DNA of 64,000 bases from Patescibacteria group bacterium (GTDB taxonomy: Bacteria > Patescibacteriota > Microgenomatia > UBA8517): the NCBI GenBank assembly GCA_022868165.1, contig JALHYA010000017.1, positions 11,634 through 75,633 of the forward strand, in the 5' to 3' direction. The notes under the pieces are model-generated. The model was not told where the DNA came from, made no database searches, and saw only the letters and a list, made by a program, of their open reading frames with translations. Made by a program: the position numbers and the translations under genes. Below are positions 1,639-10,572 of the stretch, in pieces (positions within the stretch are counted from its first letter, which is position 1; the number at the start of each line of letters is the position of its first letter).

Positions 1639-3615
1639 TCACAAACGCGTTCGCCTAAGGGTCAGTGCGTTGGCTACGACGATAAGCGATGAGGCACTCA
1701 TTAGGATGGCGCCGTATTCGGGGCGAAGCATTATACCCCAGGGGATAAATACTCCAGCTGCAGCCGGAATCGCCAATACGTTATATCCTGTTGCCCAAGC
1801 AAGATTTTGCTTCATCTTAGCATCTGTTTTTCGACTTAGAGCGATTACTTTGACAACATCCAGAGGGTTATTTTTTACTAATACTACTTCTGCGGACTCA
1901 ATGGCGACATCCGTTCCCGCTCCTATTGCGATACCAACATGGGCCTGCGTTAGACTTGGGGCATCGTTTACTCCATCCCCCACCATGCCGACGGTGTGGC
2001 CCATTGATTGAAGTTCTTTTACTTTATTTACCTTATCTTCTGGCAAAACCTCCGCAAAAACGGTATCTATTCCCAATCGTTCCCCCATCTCTTCTGCAAT
2101 CTCCTTTTTATCCCCCGTAAGCATCGCAATCTTTAATCCCATCCCATGAAGTCTATCAATTGCCTTTTTAGACTCCGGACGAACCTCATCTTCCAAAGTG
2201 ATATTGCCGATAAATTTTCCATCCTTCGTTACGGAAATATCTCTTCCTCCAACTTCTATCTTTGATTTTCCGACCATGCCTTCTATTCCCTTGCCTGGAT
2301 ACGATTTAAAATTTCTGACTTTTGGTATATCAATTCCTTTTTCCTTGGCTGCCATGACGATTGCCTTCGCAATCGGGTGCTGAGAATATATCTCAACCGC
2401 CGCGGCCAATCGCAAACACCCTTTGTTTGAAAACTTTGTTACTGCAAAATTTCCCGTTGTTAGCGTTCCGGTTTTGTCAAAAATTATGTAGTCCAGCTTT
2501 CTTGCAATTTCCAATCCCGCCATGTCGCGAATCAAAATCCCATTTCTGGCCGCCACAGCCGAAGTAATCGTTGTAACCGTCGGAATTGCCAATCCCAATG
2601 CGTGGGGACAGGTTATAACAATGACGGTGATGGCCAACGTTACTGCAAAAATCGCTCCGTGGGGATTGATAAAGAACCAATAAATAAAAGTTCCCGAGCC
2701 GACAACTATTGCGACAATTGTGAGTGCGTTTGCGGCTTTATCCGCAAGCTTTTGCACCGACGGCCTTGTTTCTTGAGCTTGACGAATAAGCTCCATTATT
2801 TGGGAGATAGCTGTTTCGCTTCCTGTTTTGGTTACTTTGACAGTCAAGGAGCCGTCATTATTAATAGTTCCGCCGATAACTTTATCGCCATTTTTCTTCC
2901 CTACGGGGCGGGATTCGCCGGTTATCATCCCCTCGTTTACCGAAGACTCTCCGTCTGTTACTACCCCATCGATAGGTATTTTCTCTCCGGGCCTTACCAG
3001 AACAGAATCCCCTACTTTGATTTCCCCGGTCGGGATGTCAACAACATCGCGACCGGACAATTTATGTGCCGCCGGAGGGATTAATTTAGCAAGTTCTCCG
3101 AGAGCATTGCCGGTCCCCAAAACAGCGCGCATCTCCATCCAATGCCCGAAAAGAAATGCCAAAACCAAAGTTGAAATTTCCCACCACAGCGATTCTCCCG
3201 TAAATAAAAATGTTGCGGCAACGGAAAAGAAATATCCCGAAATTACAGCGAGAGAAACCAGCGTCATCATGCCATAATTCTTGTTTCTTAATTCAACCAG
3301 CGCTTCTTTAAAGAATGGCCATCCGCCATAGAGGAAAATTATTGTTACAAGAAAAAATAATGATACATTATGATATGGAAGCGTCTTTTGAAATCCCAAC
3401 CATTGTTGGATTTTTGGAGAAAGAGCTAAAACGAGAATCGTTAGGGGCAGGGCAACAAAAAATCTTCTCTTAAAATCTTCCGCCATCATTGCGTGATGGT
3501 TCTCGTGACCCTTATGCTCCCCCACTTCTACAAGTGACATCCCGCATTTGGGACAAAAACCAGAAGCATCCTGTTTTACTTCAGGATGCATTGGACAAAG
3601 ATATTTATGTTCCAC
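1639..3615 (-). CDS. copper-translocating P1B-type ATPase (CPH motif) with N-terminal YxCPMHPEV...CPKCGM metal-binding module
   Basis: DKTGTLT phosphorylation motif, TGES-like [16 protein letters not shown] transmembrane metal site, GDGVNDAP hinge. The maximal ORF runs to 3723, but that would overlap the upstream gene by 119 nt. A GTG at 3615 ([11 protein letters not shown]) keeps the Cys motif and overlaps by only 11 nt. Confidence 0.9.
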
Positions 3616-4504
3616 AGCTTCCTCCGCCCACAGCGTTTTGAGGAAGCGGACCAACTTTCTTTGCAATACCAGAGGCTCCAGTGCCTGAAGAAAAATCTTT
3701 TCCCAGCATCTCTTTTGCGTCAACCTTATCCCAATCCAGATTCCTTGCGGTCTTCATGTAATAAGCATTTGTGATGTAAGTCTGGGAGAACCAAAAGGAA
3801 TTAAGCTCCAAAATATACTTGTAGATATCGTTTTCCGGAACGCCTTTTGAGACCAAAAGTTCAATCGCCGCCAAGGCTGCCATTCCGTGATTGCAGTCCG
3901 GAAACCAAGTGGGATTATCACAACAGGGTCTGTAAACCCCCTTGGCAATTCTGGCTACTTCATCCTGTTGCTCGACCGTGAGAGAAATCAAATCAAATTT
4001 ATTAAGATAATTTACTGCGTCCGACTTTGCCAAAGTCCAGCCTCCGGTTGAAGCAAAATTTCCTACCTCGGCCTTATAATCTGTGCCCAATGGTCCTTGG
4101 TCATAAACAATTGATTTTTGGGCAAGGCCCAAAGCCCAAAGAAAATCAACCACAAACTGGGAATTGGCAGCATCGATTTTTAGATTGTCGGATGAGCCTT
4201 CGGTTAATATCTTTCTTTGCTCCTCGGTCAGTTTAACGGCCTTTTCAAATTGGGCCATATCAATCACCCCGGCAGCAACGAGTTTGGGGCCGTAGTCGCC
4301 CCAGGAAACCGGCAAGGTAAAACCCTCTTTAGGAACAACTTTAGAGGAAATTTCGGCAATTGTTGCCAGTGCTTTAGCATCGCTCTTTGCTTTAACAATT
4401 ACTTGATACTTTTCTCTAAAAGTATTCATGTTCATTCCCAGGAGCAATCCCCCTACTCCCAAAACCAGGAAAGCGATTAGTATCAAAATATTTTTTCTAT
4501 TCAT
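3605..4504 (-). CDS. membrane-anchored Cys-cluster protein of unknown function (copper-locus accessory)
   Basis: 299 aa with an N-terminal TM helix. Carries the cluster [22 protein letters not shown] and a C-terminal GGGSCGT. 4-nt overlaps with both neighbours place it in the csoR-ATPase operon. Confidence 0.7.
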
Positions 4505-5067
4505 GCGAAGTTAAGCAATATAAACAAGATTATTGATGCTAGTAATATGCTTCCGAGGCTGAAAAATATCCTTTGATAAGGGAAGTAAACTTTTCCGTTT
4601 CTTTTAATAAGAAAGTTGTCCAAAATATCGACAAGATAAAAAATTGCTCCGCCCAAAACCAGTCCGAAGGTTAATCTATCCAACCCCATTATTTTGCTTA
4701 GATGGGTATTAATTAGGAAAAATTTCAGATTTAGAACCGCCCAGTTGTTAAAAGCATAAAAAGACCATATGGTTAACCCAAAAATCACAACGTAAATGGC
4801 AGGCTTTATAAACTTCCGGATTTGCCCGGAAATTTTGGCGTCGTATTTCCGAAGAATGAATGTGCCAAACCAAAAGGCTATCGCCCCCAAAAATGCCGCC
4901 ATCCAAAGACCTGTTATTGCATCATCAACTCCCAAAAATCTGGCAACGGAAAGCCCTACTACCGCTCCCCCGACACACAACGGACAATGGGCGGAAACCA
5001 CCGGGGGCAATATCAAATAGACACCTGGCAATAGAAGCAAAATTGTGATCTTTAAGGAATTTTTCAT
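4501..5067 (-). CDS. polytopic membrane protein with N-terminal CPxC motif (HCPLCVGG...RFLGVDD)
   Basis: 188 aa, signal-like N-terminus and about 5 TM helices. Paralogue of 5924-6442, sharing C-P-x-C-x(7)-GL-x(2)-R-x-LGVDD. Confidence 0.7.
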   Translation of the reverse strand: MKNSLKITILLLLPGVYLILPPVVSAHCPLCVGGAVVGLSVARFLGVDDAITGLWMAAFLGAIAFWFGTFILRKYDAKISGQIRKFIKPAIYVVIFGLTIWSFYAFNNWAVLNLKFFLINTHLSKIMGLDRLTFGLVLGGAIFYLVDILDNFLIKRNGKVYFPYQRIFFSLGSILLASIILFILLNFA

Positions 5068-5567
5068 TGGACCACATCCCCATTGAAGGTCAGTTCTTTC
5101 ATCCCACCGTCAAAATAAAGCCAAACGCTTCTCTGAACCTGTCCCAAACCTGCCAAACCATGGGCAGCCGGATCGAACCTTACGGTAACTTTGACAGTTT
5201 CGCCGTTTTTAACTGCCAAACTAAGGGTTGGGTTCGCCACACCGCTCATTTCCATTCCATAAAACGAAGATCCTTTCCCGCCGATGGTAACCGATGCTGT
5301 GGTACACATGCAGGATGTGGTGATTTTAAAAAGCTTAATATCCTTACCGGAAGCATTTTTTATCTCATACTCTTTGGTAACCAATCCCCCAGAATAAGGT
5401 ACGTTGCCCAAATCGTAATTTTGAGGATTTGACTCAATACCCTCGACCGGATTTGTAGAAATTGCAGCCTCGGTTTTTTGTTTTGTCGTAACTAAAAAGG
5501 TTAATCCGACAACCAACAAAATTGTTACAATAAAGGCTCCAATAATAAATTTACTTTCTCTGCTCAT
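5064..5567 (-). CDS. DUF1573-like protein with SCMC motif
   Basis: 167 aa with an N-terminal TM anchor, then a beta-rich domain (YDLGNVPYSGGLVTKEYEIKNASGKDIKLFKITTSCMCTTA) typical of DUF1573. Confidence 0.65.
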   Translation of the reverse strand: MSRESKFIIGAFIVTILLVVGLTFLVTTKQKTEAAISTNPVEGIESNPQNYDLGNVPYSGGLVTKEYEIKNASGKDIKLFKITTSCMCTTASVTIGGKGSSFYGMEMSGVANPTLSLAVKNGETVKVTVRFDPAAHGLAGLGQVQRSVWLYFDGGMKELTFNGDVVQ

Positions 5568-5833
5568 TTGCTTTTGCTAAATACTTCCACTATTTCTTTG
5601 ACTATTTTCTCTTTTTCGCCGGCTGGTTCGTGGATATCGTGAAGGACACAGGAGTGAAGATGGCCATGAAGAATAATTTCATCAACCTTTTTAAGAGCAG
5701 CCTGAACTGCCTGCGATTGATGTATAACATCTAAACAGTACGCATCTTCATCAAACATCTTGCGTACCCTTTTCAGATGCCCCTCGGCAATTGCCAACCT
5801 TCTTAATGTTTGTCTCTTAACGGAAGCGTCCAT
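5564..5833 (-). CDS. csoR: CsoR/RcnR-family metal-sensing repressor
   Basis: 89 aa, DUF156 pattern RLAIAEGHLKRV. C-H-C ligand set (AYCLDV ... HGHLHSC). First gene of the copper operon. Confidence 0.88.
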   Translation of the reverse strand: MDASVKRQTLRRLAIAEGHLKRVRKMFDEDAYCLDVIHQSQAVQAALKKVDEIILHGHLHSCVLHDIHEPAGEKEKIVKEIVEVFSKSK

Positions 5834-5842
5834 ATGAAGTAG

Positions 5843-5861
5843 TATCCCCCCGGGGGGGATA
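5843..5861. promoter_or_regulatory. candidate CsoR operator (TATCCCCCC GGGGGGGATA palindrome)
   Basis: G/C-tract pseudo-palindrome flanked by AT(A), the general shape of described CsoR operators. Lies 10 nt upstream of the csoR ATG, between the divergent csoR operon and the 5924 gene. Confidence 0.7.
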
Positions 5862-5923
5862 TGCTGTCAAGAAGGTATTTTGTCCGTTGCGCCGAGATAG
5901 ACTTTTCCCATAGAATTCAATGT

Positions 5924-6442
5924 ATGAAGAAATTTCTAAAAGTCCTTTCTGTTTTTTCCCTATACTCTGTCCTCTCTATACTCTTCCCTTCTGTTACCTA
6001 CGCCGTCTGCCCCGTTTGCACAGTCGCAGTCGTGGCCGGGTTAGGACTTTCTAGGTGGTTGGGTGTTGACGATACCGTTTCGGGAATATGGATAGGCGGC
6101 GTCATTCTTTCTACCTCTTTCTTGTTTGCGAGCTGGCTAAAAAAGAAAAACATAACATTTCCGTACTTAACCGTTATTTCGGCCGCGATTATGTATGCTA
6201 TTGTTCTTCTTCCCTTACAGTTTGCCAAAATAATCGGTCATCCGTTGAATACCCTCTGGGGCGTTGATAAGCTAATTTTAGGCACCTTAATTGGTTCGGT
6301 CGTCTTTCTGACGGCGGTTTTTGCCGATAGAAAGGTCAGGGAAATCAAAGGAAAACAGCTTTTTATCTTCCAGAGAGTCATTTTTCCTGTTGGCGCACTT
6401 GCAATTATGTCTTTGGTGTTTTACTTTGTAACCAGACACTAA
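5924..6442 (+). CDS. polytopic membrane protein with N-terminal CPxC motif (VCPVCTVA...RWLGVDD), paralogue of 4501-5067
   Basis: The ORF opens at 5861, but MKKFLKVLSVF at 5924 gives a signal-peptide-like start outside the operator. Same motif and TM layout as 4501-5067. Confidence 0.7.
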   Translation: MKKFLKVLSVFSLYSVLSILFPSVTYAVCPVCTVAVVAGLGLSRWLGVDDTVSGIWIGGVILSTSFLFASWLKKKNITFPYLTVISAAIMYAIVLLPLQFAKIIGHPLNTLWGVDKLILGTLIGSVVFLTAVFADRKVREIKGKQLFIFQRVIFPVGALAIMSLVFYFVTRH

Positions 6443-6443
6443 T

Positions 6444-6983
6444 ATGGCAGATAAAGCTGACGTAAAAAAACTATTGGATAAGGTCGAATCCGTCACGAAG
6501 GAGAAAAAACTCGACCTCTCCTCCGACGAAGACCTCTCTATAGGAATAATGAACCTCATTTCAATTGAGGAGCACCTTTTCTTCACTTCTCAAAAAACCG
6601 GCAAACAAATGTATCTGGATCTACTTAATGAGGTTCGGCTGATGCGAACCGAACTCATGAGAAAAATCATCAAGGACTACGAAGGAGAGGTCTGGTGCAT
6701 AAGCAAGCATTTACTTGCGGCTTCGATGAGAATGATGGAAGTCGGCACCAAAGAACTTAAAAAGGGCAATAAAAACGAGGCTTGGGAATTATTCGATAAA
6801 GGATACAAGCTCTATTCGATGTTCTGGGGCATCAATCTTGGAGTAATCAAGATGGACAGCATCAAAAGAGGAGATACAGAGGTTAACTTGGTAGACGAAA
6901 AATTTAACCTCAAGGGCAAGGTTTCCCTTTGGGATAAGCTTGGAGTAATTGTCAAAAAAGCCATCGACTGCTGCAAAGAATAA
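6444..6983 (+). CDS. hypothetical helical protein ending in DCCKE
   Basis: 179 aa. Starts 1 nt after the stop of 5924-6442, so probably co-transcribed. C-terminal vicinal Cys pair. No recognisable family. Confidence 0.6.
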   Translation: MADKADVKKLLDKVESVTKEKKLDLSSDEDLSIGIMNLISIEEHLFFTSQKTGKQMYLDLLNEVRLMRTELMRKIIKDYEGEVWCISKHLLAASMRMMEVGTKELKKGNKNEAWELFDKGYKLYSMFWGINLGVIKMDSIKRGDTEVNLVDEKFNLKGKVSLWDKLGVIVKKAIDCCKE

Positions 6984-7005: not shown

Positions 7006-7557
7006 CTATTCTACTGGGGTCAAAAGAAATAGATGAATAAATACTGTTTCTTCCTTATAAAAAATCGTTTCCTCCCCAAGGGTTAACGAAATATCTTCTC
7101 TACGGTCCAAAACTCTGTAGGCATATCTCCATTCTCCATTGTCCCCATCGGTCTCGGTGGGCATACAGGTTCTATCAAGTCTAGTCATGCCTCCCAGCCC
7201 TCTGATTTTCCATTTAAGGTAACCGGCTACATCTTTCTTTGTAATCCCCAGTTTTTCAAGTTGTTCCGCTGGGGCTACTCCTCCCGCATAAAGCCGAGTG
7301 AATTTTTTGCCATCTACCTCGACTACTTCCTGGCCACCACCGGTAATCTGAGCCAACCACTCATCATGATATACTCCCTCGGCCCCTTCATAATGGCTTG
7401 ATTCAAAGGAAAACCCTCCGCGGTCAACGGGTGTTCTAAGGTTGCGACCTGCATAACCAGAAGTTAGCCCTCTGGTCAAAATTTCTTTAATTTCTTTACT
7501 TATCACGACACCCGTAATATAGCACTCCGTTATGGTTAAAACAATTTTGTCCGCCAC
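7006..7557 (-). CDS. hypothetical protein (DUF5680-like pattern)
   Basis: 183 aa. YHDEWLAQITGGGQEVVEVDGKKFTRLYAGGV resembles, from memory, the Y-D-x-GG-E-V-V core of DUF5680. The assignment is weak. Confidence 0.5.
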   Translation of the reverse strand: MADKIVLTITECYITGVVISKEIKEILTRGLTSGYAGRNLRTPVDRGGFSFESSHYEGAEGVYHDEWLAQITGGGQEVVEVDGKKFTRLYAGGVAPAEQLEKLGITKKDVAGYLKWKIRGLGGMTRLDRTCMPTETDGDNGEWRYAYRVLDRREDISLTLGEETIFYKEETVFIHLFLLTPVE

Positions 7558-7609: not shown

Positions 7610-8143
7610 TTACAGCAAAAATCCAAAAAGGAGAAGAATCCCCGCGTTTGCCGCCAGATATAAATTTGCTTGATTTTTATTTAGAACAATCGGAGTCTGT
7701 CTAAACCAATTTATCAGACCATTTGTCTCCATCAAATCCACAACCTCATCAACTATCAAATGCAGCATAAAAGCCAGCACTATTCCTCTGCCGAATACGC
7801 TTCCCGACGAGGTTACCACCAAAAAGGCAAAAACCAGGAAAATTATCTGGAAAAGGGCGGTGTGGAAAATAAGCTTTGTCCGCTCGTTTCTGGTCTCGGC
7901 AAGCAAACTTAGGCTCCCCCATAAATCGCGTTGCCCAATCATGTGATTAAATCTTTGGGAAACGTATTCCTGCGGCCTAAGAAAAAAGACATAAAGAAGA
8001 TGGTCCAAGTCCGGAAGCATGGTTCCAACCAATCCCCCAACCCAAAACGGCCAATATGAGAGAGTCGTCCAGCCGCGCATTAAAGAAACAAAAACAAAGA
8101 AGGAAACTAAAAAGGAAAAATGGATAAAAATCTCTTTCTTCAC
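7610..8143 (-). CDS. integral membrane protein with PDLDH motif, function unknown
   Basis: 177 aa with 4-5 hydrophobic helices. MLPDLDHLLY is reminiscent of membrane-bound metal-dependent hydrolases (DUF457/YdjM-like). Low functional confidence. Confidence 0.55.
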   Translation of the reverse strand: MKKEIFIHFSFLVSFFVFVSLMRGWTTLSYWPFWVGGLVGTMLPDLDHLLYVFFLRPQEYVSQRFNHMIGQRDLWGSLSLLAETRNERTKLIFHTALFQIIFLVFAFLVVTSSGSVFGRGIVLAFMLHLIVDEVVDLMETNGLINWFRQTPIVLNKNQANLYLAANAGILLLFGFLL

Positions 8144-8180: not shown

Positions 8181-9158
8181 TTAGTCCGTAAATACTTGTA
8201 CAAACATTTTTCCGTAGAAGCCGTTGTCAATAAGGCCAATTCCGACTTTATGAAATCTCGGTTCCAAAATATTCGCCCTGTGGCCTTCGGAATTTATTAG
8301 TCCCGTCATTGCGGTTTCAACAGTGGGCGCCAGAGCTAAATTTTCTCCAGCAAAACTAAAGCTAATATGGGCCGCCGTGAGCCTATCCCCGACATCCTGT
8401 CCTTCCGGTGAATAATGTGAGAAATATTGCCTAACCCACATATCTTTTGCGTGTGCTCGGGCAACTTCGGTAATCGCAGGAGACCATGTCAGAGCAGCAA
8501 CTCCCCGACTTGTTCTCTCTTTATTTACCATAGCAAACATTTGCTCCTCACTTTGGCTATCGACCGAAAGATTCTGACTTCCAACAGTTAAAGGCACGGA
8601 TTCTTTGCTTCCGGGTTTAATCGTAAAGTAGGTTAAAGATTCATTGACCGCTCCTCCAAAAATCTCGTTTATTTTCTTTTCTACCCCCGAAGTTTCTTTA
8701 ATAATTAAGCCTCCGATTTTGGACTTGGACTCCGCTTCTTTAAGCTGGGGATTTACCGGAAGACCCAGAATAAAAGTCAGAATAAAGGCTATTAAGATTA
8801 GCCCCTCACCCAGCGCGGGCAAAATTGCCAGGTATTTTGAGTATTTGCTGTTCCAATACTTCTCCGGAAGCTTGGTTATAAGGTGCGCAAAAACATAACC
8901 CAAAAGGGCTTCGCTAAGTATCGCCGTAAGTAGAAAACCCAACGCGTTCGCTATTGAATGGGAAAGAGAAAAGTTGCTTTCCAGAATCCCCGCGGCAAAT
9001 TTATATCCCCGAAGGGAAATCAATAAGGAACCCAAAAAGGCTGCAAAGTCTGCCAAAAGCACCCAAATTCCGTGACGCCAAGCCTCGCTGATGAAGTAAA
9101 TAAGAACAAGGATAATAACCAGGTCAACCCAATTTCCGTGCAGAGCAGGAATCTTCAT
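8181..9158 (-). CDS. CvpA-like membrane domain fused to a CAP/SCP (YkwD-like) domain
   Basis: 325 aa. N-terminal 4-TM CvpA-like region. C-terminal CAP-domain pattern (VNKERTSRGVAALTW...AHAKDM...YFSHYSPEG...GENLA...SEGHRANIL). Confidence 0.7.
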   Translation of the reverse strand: MKIPALHGNWVDLVIILVLIYFISEAWRHGIWVLLADFAAFLGSLLISLRGYKFAAGILESNFSLSHSIANALGFLLTAILSEALLGYVFAHLITKLPEKYWNSKYSKYLAILPALGEGLILIAFILTFILGLPVNPQLKEAESKSKIGGLIIKETSGVEKKINEIFGGAVNESLTYFTIKPGSKESVPLTVGSQNLSVDSQSEEQMFAMVNKERTSRGVAALTWSPAITEVARAHAKDMWVRQYFSHYSPEGQDVGDRLTAAHISFSFAGENLALAPTVETAMTGLINSEGHRANILEPRFHKVGIGLIDNGFYGKMFVQVFTD

Positions 9159-9451
9159 TTCCTTTTGCTTTTAGCCTCTTTCTTGAGTTGGGTCAATTTC
9201 CAGATGAATAAAGCGGCTCTGTTTTTAACATTATTGGCGTCTTTGACAAAATTTTTGGCCGTCTCCAAAAGCCCCCGCGGGGTTTCTTTGGCCAATTTAA
9301 TATATAACGATTTATTCTTTAAATCCCCCAACTCTTCGGCCAGCTCGTAACCGTATTTCTGGAATTCATAGGAAATAAATTTGTCCTCGTCGTTGTCAAA
9401 CTTTTTTAGAACGTCGGCAACCGTAGAAAATCCCTTAAGATTATTTGGCAT
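9155..9451 (-). CDS. hypothetical protein (98 aa, Lys-rich C-terminus)
   Basis: ORF overlaps neighbours by 4 and 11 nt in operon fashion. No recognisable motif. Confidence 0.5.
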   Translation of the reverse strand: MPNNLKGFSTVADVLKKFDNDEDKFISYEFQKYGYELAEELGDLKNKSLYIKLAKETPRGLLETAKNFVKDANNVKNRAALFIWKLTQLKKEAKSKRK

Positions 9452-9914
9452 TTAATAACTCGTCCGCAACTTTTTTTATTACCGGCCTTAAATTTTCCTT
9501 CTCCACTTCGCTAAAATCCTGCAAAACATACTCCTCTCCCGGAATTCTGTTGTCCGGACCGCGGTCATCGACACCGATTCTAACCCTCCAAAAATCATCG
9601 GTGCCCAACAGCCGCTCTATAGAATTTACTCCGTTATGAAGTTTTGGACCCTTACCTTTTTGGATTTTATAGCTTCCCAAAGGAATATCCAAATCATCAT
9701 GAATAACCCATAAATCTGACGGATTTATACGATATTGTTCAACTAATTTCTTCACATAAGCCCCCGACTCGTTCATAAAAGTTATTGTCTTTCTGACTAT
9801 TACTCCGGGAGGAAGAACTCTGGTAAGAAGTTCATCTACTACTATGTAACCAACGTTATGCCGATTATTTTTATATTTTTCTTCGGGATTTCCCAAACCA
9901 ATGATAAGTTTCAT
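9441..9914 (-). CDS. pth: peptidyl-tRNA hydrolase
   Basis: MKLIIGLGNPEEKYKNNRHNVGY is the canonical Pth N-terminus. The internal Met at 9914 avoids overlap with pcm; the maximal ORF runs to 9992. Confidence 0.88.
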   Translation of the reverse strand: MKLIIGLGNPEEKYKNNRHNVGYIVVDELLTRVLPPGVIVRKTITFMNESGAYVKKLVEQYRINPSDLWVIHDDLDIPLGSYKIQKGKGPKLHNGVNSIERLLGTDDFWRVRIGVDDRGPDNRIPGEEYVLQDFSEVEKENLRPVIKKVADELLNAK

Positions 9915-9930
9915 AATCCCAATTGTAACA

Positions 9931-10572
9931 TTAGTTACTTTCGACGAAGGGCACAAAGGAAAAGATTCCGTACTGCTTTTTTGTGACTCCAAATTTGCTT
10001 TTTTTGTACTTCGTCATAGATTTACTCTCTCCCTCTCCAACCGGAGCGACCAAAATCCCTCCAATCTTAAGCTGGTCAAAAAGACCTTTTGGGACTTGCT
10101 CCATACCCGCGGTAACAAGAATCGCGTCAAACGGCGCATGCGCCTTCCACCCGAATTCTCCCTGTCCCACGCTTACCTTTACATTTTTTATCTGAAGTTC
10201 TTTTAGTGCCTTTTCGGCACTTCTCGCTAGCTCCGGAATTCTCTCAAGTGAATAAACTTCTTTTGCAAGGCGGGAAAGAACGGCTGCTTGATATCCGGAG
10301 CCGGTGCCTATTTCCAATACCTTTTCTTTTCCTTTAAGTCCAAGAAGGTTAGTCATAAAAGCCACGGTGTAAGGCTGGGAAATTGTTTGGCCGAAACCTA
10401 TCGGAAGAGCGGCATCGGAATATGCCAAATATCTTCTACCTTTGGGAACGAAGAGCTCCCGAGGTATTTTAAGCATTGCCTTAAACACCTTGGGAGCATT
10501 CAGTCCATAAGCGGACCTGATTTCTTCTATCATCCCCTTTCGAGGATTCATAAGATTAAGCCTTCTTTGCAA
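9931..10572 (-). CDS. pcm: protein-L-isoaspartate O-methyltransferase
   Basis: SAM motif VLEIGTGSGYQAAVL, GQTISQPY substrate motif, about 210 aa. Confidence 0.88.
   Translation of the reverse strand: MQRRLNLMNPRKGMIEEIRSAYGLNAPKVFKAMLKIPRELFVPKGRRYLAYSDAALPIGFGQTISQPYTVAFMTNLLGLKGKEKVLEIGTGSGYQAAVLSRLAKEVYSLERIPELARSAEKALKELQIKNVKVSVGQGEFGWKAHAPFDAILVTAGMEQVPKGLFDQLKIGGILVAPVGEGESKSMTKYKKSKFGVTKKQYGIFSFVPFVESN

Follow-up and report, generated by a model that had tools for sequence, protein, structure and literature searches.

A predicted CsoR-type copper operon of a Patescibacteria bacterium and its cassette of envelope cysteine proteins, a possible thiol/Cu(I) relay

What might three envelope cysteine proteins do between the copper repressor and the copper pump of a single operon? 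This question is raised by a locus in a stretch of 64,000 nt from a Patescibacteria group bacterium (GCA_022868165.1, contig JALHYA010000017.1, positions 11,634 to 75,633 of the forward strand), here called the window, in which csoR and the gene of a copper ATPase (copB) enclose the genes of a DUF1573-like protein and of two proteins without a family name. The unnamed proteins of the locus are designated P3, P4, P9, and P10, and the triad DUF1573-P3-P4 is referred to as the cassette. The locus as a whole consists of three modules: csoR-DUF1573-P3-P4-copB, the genes trxA and trxB with a proline-rich open reading frame (ORF) between them, and the pair P9-P10. In the best reading, which is about as likely as not, the cassette is a copper-induced thiol/Cu(I) relay of the envelope, which would work like the Scs or DsbD-CcdA systems and be built from unrelated proteins.

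The cassette and its neighbourhood

Relatives of P4 were collected by a pattern scan with one genome per species and were found in 374 genomes; the best 80 loci, all of them in a Patescibacteria-type context, were analysed. For their annotation, 28 queries (from the window and from three annotated loci) were compared by phmmer at E 1e-4 with all naive ORFs, and linkage was measured within 8 kb. By these counts, a Cu-ATPase gene lies beside P4 in 64 of the 80 loci and csoR in 52, compared with about 1-2% expected in a 16-kb neighbourhood with one copA per genome of about 1 Mb. Further neighbours are DUF1573 (61 loci), DUF5676 (32), P10 (26), TrxA (25), TrxB (24), and DsbA (23). Such a survey had been proposed in a preliminary description of this DNA, which named missing enrichment near metal-resistance genes as evidence against its interpretation; because the linkage to csoR and the Cu-ATPase is strong, the survey does not refute it on this point.

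The genes around P4 are mostly arranged in one of two recurrent ways. The window represents architecture A, CsoR-DUF1573-P3-P4-(DUF5676)-ATPase-TrxA-TrxB-DsbA. In architecture B, TrxB-TrxA is divergent from CsoR-ATPase-DUF1573-DsbD_TM-P4, with the DsbD_TM gene in the position of P3. DUF1573-P3-P4 is also found, with overlapping junctions, beside CsoR-YHS-ATPase in L005-L008, where the genomic surroundings are clearly others and trx genes are lacking.

Concerning the slot between DUF1573 and P4, it is occupied by P3 in 25 of the 80 loci and by a gene of the CcdA/DsbD family in 43, the latter count including a divergent subtype of 260 aa which was recognised by jackhmmer and whose Pfam matches to DsbD_TM and SfLAP are both sub-threshold. 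The two are never found together. In 12 loci the slot contains neither of them, and five of these 12 are without upstream sequence. Canonical single-Cys CcdA-like proteins fill the slot in 16 loci. P3 is the direct upstream neighbour of P4 in 24 loci. Since P3 and the CcdA-like slot proteins are non-homologous (hhalign probability 1%) and nevertheless fill one conserved slot, P3 likely does a CcdA/DsbD-type job there, which is the best available argument for such a function; the substitution supports that P3 works like CcdA/DsbD, not that it belongs to this family. Other thiol-redox genes found in the same operons elsewhere are those of Redoxin/TlpA-like proteins, of a WCPHC Trx-like protein, and of DsbA.

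P3 is a paralogue of P9 (29% identity, E 2e-20), in agreement with the duplicated CPxC membrane proteins of the preliminary description. The motif A-x-C-P-x-C is invariant in P3/P9 and contains the only invariant Cys of the family, for which an exhaustive profile search returned 579 clusters at 50% identity. For 188 members, the distribution of charges (positive-inside rule) and hydropathy predict a cytoplasmic N-terminus, Lys/Arg-rich loops on the inside, and the CPxC helix with the following acidic G-V-D-D at the outer face. Homologues of P9 begin at an MKK codon which corresponds to ATG 5924, inside the ORF from 5861. Among 132 cluster representatives with the motif, 24 are extended at the N-terminus; 14 of these 24 have, ahead of the hydrophobic segment with A-x-CPxC, a signal peptide, a thioredoxin- or glutaredoxin-like domain with CxxC (CPHC, CPYC, CQYC, and others), a transmembrane (TM) helix, and a Lys-rich linker. 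By the predicted topology, the CxxC domain and the CPxC of such a fusion both lie outside. Directly behind each of two fusion genes follows a homologue of P10, with 51% identity in one case and 60% in the other, and neither locus contains copper genes. In one P9-type protein (P0428), the thioredoxin-fold domain is replaced by an N-terminal Nitro_FeMo-Co domain (PF02579, E 4.6e-15).

Neither P3 nor P9 matches Pfam or NCBIfam, with relaxed thresholds and with sub-regions at E 10, and the comparison of the P3/P9 profile with PDB sequences gave noise only. An assignment to DsbD_TM/CcdA (PF02683) was rejected: Pfam gave no match at E 10, hhalign the above 1% against 45 CcdA-like slot sequences, and the two Cys of CPxC are adjacent and not distributed as one redox Cys in each of TM1 and TM4. 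DsbB/VKOR was equally discarded, given a single Cys pair where two are expected and no Pfam match. As for Mer transport proteins, neither P3, P9, and P10 nor the family described next matches them in Pfam or NCBIfam, and the likeness is one of motif layout only.

An unnamed membrane family of about 150 aa (M150) is found in eight loci, for example at L066:4503-4967, L067:6971-7435, L071:6744-7190, L072:1320-1763, L076:7369-7797, and L078:7400-7843. Its second hydrophobic segment opens with F-x-I-C-P-I-C-A-G-V (CP[IA]C), and its charged C-terminal tail ends with K-M-K-[ND]-C-C, such that its layout resembles P9 and the tail of P10 in one polypeptide. It fills the slot that P10 has in sister loci, between the CcdA-like gene and the gene of the WCPHC Trx-like protein. 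A kinship of M150 to P3/P9 is no more than suggested by an hhalign probability of 46%.

P4 has more than 5600 homologues without a Pfam domain of their own, and matches neither Pfam nor NCBIfam as a whole or in sub-regions at E 10; its profile gave noise only against PDB sequences. In an alignment of 36 sequences (55-65% identity), no exchange is seen at C194, C195, C204, H206, M208, and C297. They form an R-P-C-C run followed by C-x-H-x-M, and a C-terminal tail G-G-S-C-G-x, whose Cys is situated at position -3 from the end in 75 of 76 complete homologues, although this feature was not used in finding them. The only fold match of the C-terminal subdomain is to CcmH and is weak; P4 lacks the LRCxxC motif of CcmH and gives no Pfam match to CcmH (PF03918). 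A rhodanese domain with an intact C-K-T-G-R-M-S loop is found in 26 of the 120 P4 homologues listed (P0039, P0064, P0109, and others); about 34 of the 80 loci hold this long form, in which the rhodanese is inserted between membrane anchor and P4 body and would be extracytoplasmic. The P4 of the window has no rhodanese domain. In L004 (4751-9502), L018, and L028, P4 adjoins neither P3 nor CcdA and is preceded by a Ferric_reduct membrane protein of 500 aa and by a DUF1775 protein (YcnI-like, copper-binding). In L004, the next gene overlaps P4 by 4 nt and encodes a fusion of HMBD and MauE. These loci constitute another transmembrane electron-transfer or copper context for P4.

The DUF1573-like protein matches PF07610 (E 4.9e-11, 42.9 bits against a cutoff of 26.1) and also the HYDIN/VesB Ig-like family. 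Its motif is essentially invariant, TSCxCT with exactly two Cys being present in 57 of 66 homologues. DUF1573 selenoproteins with UGC exist (PMC9312934, PMC13188914). If this UGC is equated with the CxC of the window protein, which we infer, the first of the two Cys would be reactive, as a site of redox chemistry or of metal binding. Just upstream of DUF1573, the cassettes of Parcubacteria type repeatedly contain an unnamed family of about 130 aa with an N-terminal TM segment, C-x(6-9)-C-P, and a conserved end W-L-A-L-H-E-N-S-P; it was found in 14 loci (e.g., L066:2725-3123, L076:5555-5968, L078:5670-6047, L073:829-1212, and L083:1590-2009).

The predicted topology places all three Cys motifs of the cassette outside the cell. 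The Cys motifs pointed out in the preliminary description are kept far beyond chance in the homologue sets of P4, P3/P9, DUF1573, and P10. Its statement that the accessory proteins belong to no copper-handling family which it could name stands for P3, P4, P9, and P10; DUF1573 was already a named family.

The csoR operon and the divergent P9-P10 pair

The window has matches among the NCBI proteins of a metagenome-assembled Patescibacteria genome. All ORFs of the gene string reported in the preliminary description are present in the ORF list (Table 1), and the tight co-directional junctions that it noted are found as well: overlaps of 4 nt at csoR/DUF1573 (5564-5567), DUF1573/P3 (5064-5067), and P3/P4 (4501-4504), an overlap of 11 nt between P4 and the ATPase (start taken as GTG 3615), a gap of 36 nt between ATPase and trxA, and a gap of 1 nt between P9 and P10.

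Table 1. Coordinates of genes and regulatory sites of the locus in the 64,000-nt window
Feature	Position	Strand	Family or basis
csoR, repressor of the CsoR family (Cu(I) type), opening the operon	5564-5833	minus	PF02583
DUF1573-like protein, N-terminal membrane anchor and Ig-like domain, TSCMCT	5064-5567	minus	PF07610
P3, polytopic membrane protein of 188 aa, AHCPLCVGG...RFLGVDD	4501-5067	minus	new family, P9 paralogue
P4, 299 aa, N-terminally anchored, extracytoplasmic, GGGSCGT end	3605-4504	minus	new family
copB, CPH-type P1B copper ATPase	ORF 1639-3723, likely gene 1639-3615	minus	TIGR01511, HMBD
trxA, WCGPC thioredoxin	1264-1602	minus	TIGR01068
Pro-rich ORF of 80 aa between trxA and trxB	1021-1263	minus	no family match
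trxB, thioredoxin-disulfide reductase, CAPC	35-1012	minus	TIGR01292
P9, P3 paralogue, A-V-C-P-V-C	ORF 5861-6442, likely gene 5924-6442	plus	homologue starts
P10, cytoplasmic helical protein of 179 aa ending DCCKE	6444-6983	plus	new family
CsoR-type operator palindrome ATCCCCCCGGGGGGGAT	5844-5860		inside promoter spacer
Sigma-70-like promoter of the csoR operon, TTGACA-18-GATACT	5870-5841	minus	10/12 consensus matches
Promoter-like site ahead of trxA	1630-1601	minus	consensus match

The csoR product matches the four-helix-bundle domain PF02583 (Pfam scan, E 1.8e-21, 76.8 bits against a cutoff of 22.8), and its best NCBIfam match is RicR. The translation contains the ligand residues Y32-C33, H58, and C62 (H-x3-C), and the pattern YC...HxxxC recurs in 43 of 52 csoR genes of related loci. 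C-H-C with a preceding Tyr is the fingerprint of Cu(I)-sensing CsoR, whereas persulfide sensors exhibit a Cys-only fingerprint. The palindrome ATCCCCCCGGGGGGGAT, which we take to be a classic GC-rich CsoR box, occurs once in the window, and a second CsoR box was sought across the 64 kb without result. It lies inside the 18-nt spacer of the minus-strand site TTGACA...GATACT, the position expected of a repressor operator, and is regarded as a predicted operator. Of 52 related loci, 30 possess a palindrome AT-C(4-8)...G(4-8)-AT close to the start of csoR, compared with 1% of random 240-nt windows. The promoter sites of the csoR operon and of trxA are consensus matches only; on the plus strand, reading of the sequence gave no convincing promoter for P9. 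Taken together, csoR-DUF1573-P3-P4-copB is predicted to be an autoregulated CsoR-type operon of a Woesebacteria-like Patescibacterium.

The ATPase matches TIGR01511 (NCBIfam scan, E 3e-174, 580.9 bits against a cutoff of 397). In its translation, the transmembrane motifs CPH, GYN, and MSASS, the sequence GDGVNDAP, and a short His-rich stretch are found, so that the P-type core (DKTGT, TGD, GDGxNDxP) and the CPH/YN/MSxSS features of a CopB-like P1B ATPase are present; on account of these three motifs and the His-rich stretch, it is classed as CopB-like. Its likely start, GTG 3615, is situated immediately before YLCPMHPEV. The N-terminal module YxCPMHPEV...CPKCGM is present as had been described and is not CopZ-like, but it is no novelty, being the named Pfam domain HMBD (PF19335, E 1.5e-11). 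Family scans of the locus ORFs detected no CopZ/HMA protein, as had been noted before.

P10, encoded on the plus strand behind P9, has at least 8000 homologues of high identity; none of the 120 listed carries a Pfam domain, and neither the window protein nor 23 family members match Pfam or NCBIfam. Invariant residues include E43, H44, C85, K88, H89, C176, C177, and E179. Every one of 106 ORFs has the C-terminal CC, the end motif being D-C-C-x-E. The AF2 model is a helical bundle of low confidence (pLDDT 63) with a disordered CC tail and with non-specific fold matches.

A scan of metagenomes for P10 returned 80 loci. Of the loci in this P10-centred set that are long enough to tell (58), 41 have P9 immediately upstream of P10, and a Cys-bearing membrane gene is situated nearby in 35 of 36. 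In the P4-centred loci, P10 has both P9 and P3 nearby in nine cases, P3 alone in seven, and a CcdA-like gene alone in ten; P9, P3, or a CcdA-like gene is found near P10 in 61 of 62 loci with enough flank. Roughly every second of the longer P10-centred loci has the CsoR cassette divergently beside P9-P10, which is also the arrangement of the window, whereas in others P9-P10 is placed directly beside TrxA-TrxB-DsbA without the copper cassette (e.g., L109, L121, L133, L151, L153, and L162). In L009, a P9 homologue of 50% identity lies upstream of P10 next to rpoD/dnaG. Because P9-P10 loci occur with and without it, the cassette behaves as a unit that is present or absent in a conserved thiol-redox neighbourhood. 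The preliminary description had regarded everything as one extended copper locus, which no longer holds: P9-P10 is also found apart from copper genes, and trxA has a promoter-like site of its own. In a Blackburnbacteria locus (L011:6795-6998), P10 is preceded not by P9 but by an ORF of 67 aa, which is similar to the C-terminal half of the Grx-like domain of P9 fusions (C-G-V-P...G-V-P-M-L...C-I-T-G).

Possible working of the cassette and competing explanations

In the proposed relay, Cu(I) would release CsoR from the promoter palindrome, and the derepressed operon would yield a CopB-type efflux ATPase together with the three envelope proteins. DUF1573 (C-x-C) and P4 (CC...C-x-H-x-M, with a further Cys on the flexible C-terminal tail) would be anchored surface proteins whose Cys face outward, and P3 would be the polytopic partner between them, with CPxC at the outer membrane face. 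P3 would exchange dithiol/disulfide, and possibly Cu(I)-thiolate, with both surface proteins. It would in this way keep their Cys able to bind Cu(I) expelled by the pump or undo disulfides formed by copper catalysis, which would be the job of a CcdA/DsbD-type protein in sister lineages. P9-P10 would constitute a separate and more widespread version, composed of a membrane CPxC protein and a cytoplasmic protein with C-terminal Cys-Cys, to which a secreted Trx-fold domain would sometimes be fused. An obvious candidate for coupling the outer-face Cys pair of P3 to the cytoplasm would be P10. A precedent for copper stress inducing envelope thiol oxidoreductases that also bind Cu(I) is the Scs system (PMC10907172, PMC8900818).

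Several points weigh against this relay. Its basis is sequence comparison: that copper induces the operon, that the products bind Cu(I), which way electrons would flow, and which proteins would be in contact are all inferred. The neighbourhood counts are only approximate, because the loci were gathered by motif-based patterns and their naive ORFs annotated with our own phmmer queries. With its single Cys pair at the predicted outer face, P3 looks more like DsbB/VKOR than like CcdA in topology, and for the same reason the route of reducing power across the membrane is left unexplained. The CcmH match of P4 is weak, with Foldseek finding nothing, and the P10 model is of low confidence. Two P10-centred loci (L139, L140) hold a DsbD_TM gene elsewhere in the neighbourhood of a P3 cassette; the exclusivity of P3 and CcdA/DsbD therefore concerns the slot, not the genome. 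Finally, 29 DsbD-family slot proteins possess vicinal CC pairs in both signature helices (FAPCCIT, T-S-S-C-C-T-P), which are unusual for electron carriers, resemble Mer-type sites, and could equally suit a metal site. These proteins are found in loci of Gottesmanbacteria type (e.g., L024:6736-7572, L025:6739-7575, and L059:6751-7587).

The last point leads to a reading which we consider rather unlikely as a whole, namely that metal and not thiols is passed on. The Cys motifs would then be ligands of Cu(I) (or Ag/Hg), with DUF1573 and P4 as surface chaperones or sponges like CopL, CupA, and MerP, with the CPxC of P3 and the PCC/SCC-type DsbD_TM proteins as membrane metal sites like those of MerT/MerF or the CPx of P1B ATPases, and with P10 (C-terminal CC, Cys85, His89) as a cytoplasmic chaperone replacing the absent CopZ. 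Membership of the cassette in the csoR/copB operon, the invariant Cys, His, and Met of P4, the vicinal CC pairs of the 29 slot proteins, and the lack of CopZ among the scanned ORFs are in accordance with it, as are HMBD, YHS, and DUF1775/YcnI genes in related loci, P10 directly adjoining P4/CopA in Parcubacteria-type loci, and the combination of a membrane CPxC with a C-terminal CC in M150, which recalls the layout of MerF. However, an import of copper under copper stress would be futile, single-Cys CcdA-like proteins occupy the same slot in 16 loci, relatives of P9 are fused to DsbA/Grx-like CxxC domains, and P9-P10 pairs occur without any copper gene. Copper trafficking, which the preliminary description proposed together with thiol maintenance, is not preferred, as the substitution by CcdA/DsbD and the thioredoxin-fold fusions favour thiol-disulfide exchange at least as strongly. 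The two readings can hold side by side, as Scs proteins do both (PMC10907172), and the metal relay, as the main rival, may be partly true. There is a reasonable, although less than even, chance that P3/P9 together with P10 represent a third, Patescibacteria-specific class of transmembrane thiol-disulfide relay alongside DsbB/VKOR and DsbD/CcdA. Cytoplasmic P10 would then couple to a membrane CPxC protein serving secreted CxxC or CxC proteins; P9-P10 would do housekeeping with DsbA-like domains, and the P3 version would have entered the CsoR regulon, where it would look after two new surface Cu(I)/thiol proteins, DUF1573 and P4.

The neighbourhood data bear also on another explanation, by which the accessory genes would encode general envelope or housekeeping proteins of Microgenomates that merely share a conserved block with csoR-copB and trxAB. 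Many genomes do exhibit synteny of pth, cvpA/CAP, ydjM-like, DUF3105, P10, P9, cassette, trxA, trxB, and dsbA, and the genomic placement of P9-P10 is clearly independent of copper. Yet the order DUF1573-membrane protein-P4 keeps its overlapping junctions, it stays linked to csoR/copA through three or more rearrangements of the architecture and in another genomic setting, csoR overlaps the cassette by 4 nt in the window, and between trxA and P9-P10 the cassette is either there as a whole or missing as a whole, which makes synteny alone improbable. A CstR-like system for sulfide or persulfide is in our view very improbable. In it, sulfane sulfur would be the signal of the regulator, and persulfides would be handled by P4, which is often fused to rhodanese. 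Sulfur metabolism can be under the control of CsoR-family members (PMC10318464), and the rhodanese with its intact CxxGR.S loop in the above 26 P4 homologues would suit such a system; the regulator, however, possesses the Cu(I) C-H-C fingerprint with Tyr and has a copper sensor, RicR, as best NCBIfam match, the last gene of the operon encodes a copper ATPase, the palindrome has the form of a classic GC-rich CsoR box, and the P4 of the window is without rhodanese. The ligand fingerprint and the ATPase were taken as decisive in rejecting this reading.

Among described systems, Scs (ScsABCD of Salmonella, Proteus, and Caulobacter) is close to the proposed thiol/Cu(I) relay in its working. There, the DsbD-like membrane thiol-disulfide transporter ScsB works on Cys proteins outside the cytoplasm, which take part in disulfide exchange and are also binders of Cu(I) (PMC10907172, PMC8900818, PMC5524982). 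Both are envelope modules linked to copper stress and combine a membrane protein with extracytoplasmic Cys proteins. There are, however, differences: DUF1573, P3, and P4 are neither homologues of Scs proteins nor of thioredoxin fold, P3 has one CPxC pair and no homology to DsbD_TM, and the system of the window stands under CsoR, in the same operon as the pump and in an organism with a single membrane. Similarity to CcdA/DsbD with acceptors of the TlpA/ResA/CcmG/CcmH type consists in the CcdA/DsbD gene at the position of P3 in 43 of 80 cassettes, in trxA/trxB adjoining in the window, and in the weak CcmH match of the P4 subdomain; moreover, an Ig-like domain with a Cys pair recalls DsbD-alpha. 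In contrast, P3 exhibits neither sequence or profile similarity to CcdA/DsbD nor a 3+3 repeat or a second Cys in the corresponding helix, by prediction its Cys pair lies outside, and P4 differs from CcmH in its missing LRCxxC and Pfam match.

With DsbB/VKOR, P3/P9 share the small polytopic form, the predicted outer-face Cys pair, and members fused to a secreted Trx-fold domain with DsbA-like CPHC, and P9-P10 adjoins dsbA-trxB-trxA in sister genomes; yet they are non-homologous, possess one Cys pair instead of two, and P9 has in P10 a putative dedicated cytoplasmic partner, which DsbB and VKOR lack. Mer (MerP, MerT, MerF) and CopL/CupA combine, in metal-resistance operons, an anchored or periplasmic Cys protein with a membrane Cys-pair helix and a vicinal Cys pair that is cytoplasmic or C-terminal; P3, P9, and P10 have no sequence relationship to them, and import would make no sense for copper detoxification. 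The csoR-copZ-copA operons of Firmicutes and Actinobacteria agree with the window in the C-H-C CsoR, the GC-rich palindrome in the promoter, and the P1B copper ATPase, whereas in the window the ATPase has HMBD and CPH (CopB-like), the scanned ORFs of the locus include no CopZ/HMA protein, and three extra envelope Cys proteins are situated inside the operon.

Regulator, pump, thioredoxin system, and DUF1573 domain thus belong to known families. What is new is the copper-linked envelope thiol system predicted from P3/P9, P4, and P10, whose resemblance to Dsb, Scs, Ccm, and Mer is functional only. In the papers searched on DUF1573, on CsoR with CcdA, and on copper or DsbA in Patescibacteria, no description of this cassette was found. 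A large and mostly uncultured share of bacterial diversity belongs to the Patescibacteria (CPR), whose genomes are tiny and rich in genes without annotation; they are reported to be largely quinone-less. For the very large unnamed families P4, P10, and P3/P9, a testable role is proposed here, and the copper regulon of the window links the pump to a Cys-based envelope module unrelated to the Dsb, Scs, and Ccm families. Should P3/P9-P10 indeed form a new route for thiol redox or Cu(I) across the membrane, this would bear on extracytoplasmic disulfides in quinone-poor bacteria, and a new class would join the proteins of copper and redox homeostasis.

Thioredoxin genes and flanking region

The identity of trxA and trxB is given by matches to TIGR01068 (E 6e-37, 125.8 bits against a cutoff of 96.8) and TIGR01292 (372.3 bits against a cutoff of 343.45). 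They are adjacent, separate genes, not a fused system as formerly described. Among the 80 P4 loci, trxA is present in two different orientations relative to csoR. The pair trxA-trxB is a conserved housekeeping neighbour outside the operon, and plausible as ultimate reductant or electron source.

The proline-rich ORF of the window begins in frame directly after the stop codon of trxA and matches neither Pfam nor NCBIfam. Comparable ORFs of 59-137 aa, rich in Pro, Thr, Ala, and Glu and usually starting with MDP(N/T), are found in the trxA-trxB gap of 13 Woesebacteria-like loci (e.g., L014:8242-8439, L018:13324-13572, and L034:12154-12453), and are absent where trxA and trxB abut, as in loci of Gottesmanbacteria type.

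Downstream of P10, the window continues on the minus strand with an ORF of 183 aa without family match (7006-7557) and with a YdjM-like membrane protein (7610-8143, PF04307, E 7.7e-6, below cutoff). The YdjM-like gene, cvpA/CAP (8181-9158), and pth (9441-9992) constitute a flank that is conserved in many genomes. The synteny of pth, cvpA/CAP, ydjM-like, and cassette is shared by many records of metagenome-assembled genomes named 'uncultured Gammaproteobacteria bacterium' (L012, L015, L017-L019, and others); on such Patescibacteria-type loci, these names look like mislabels or placeholders.

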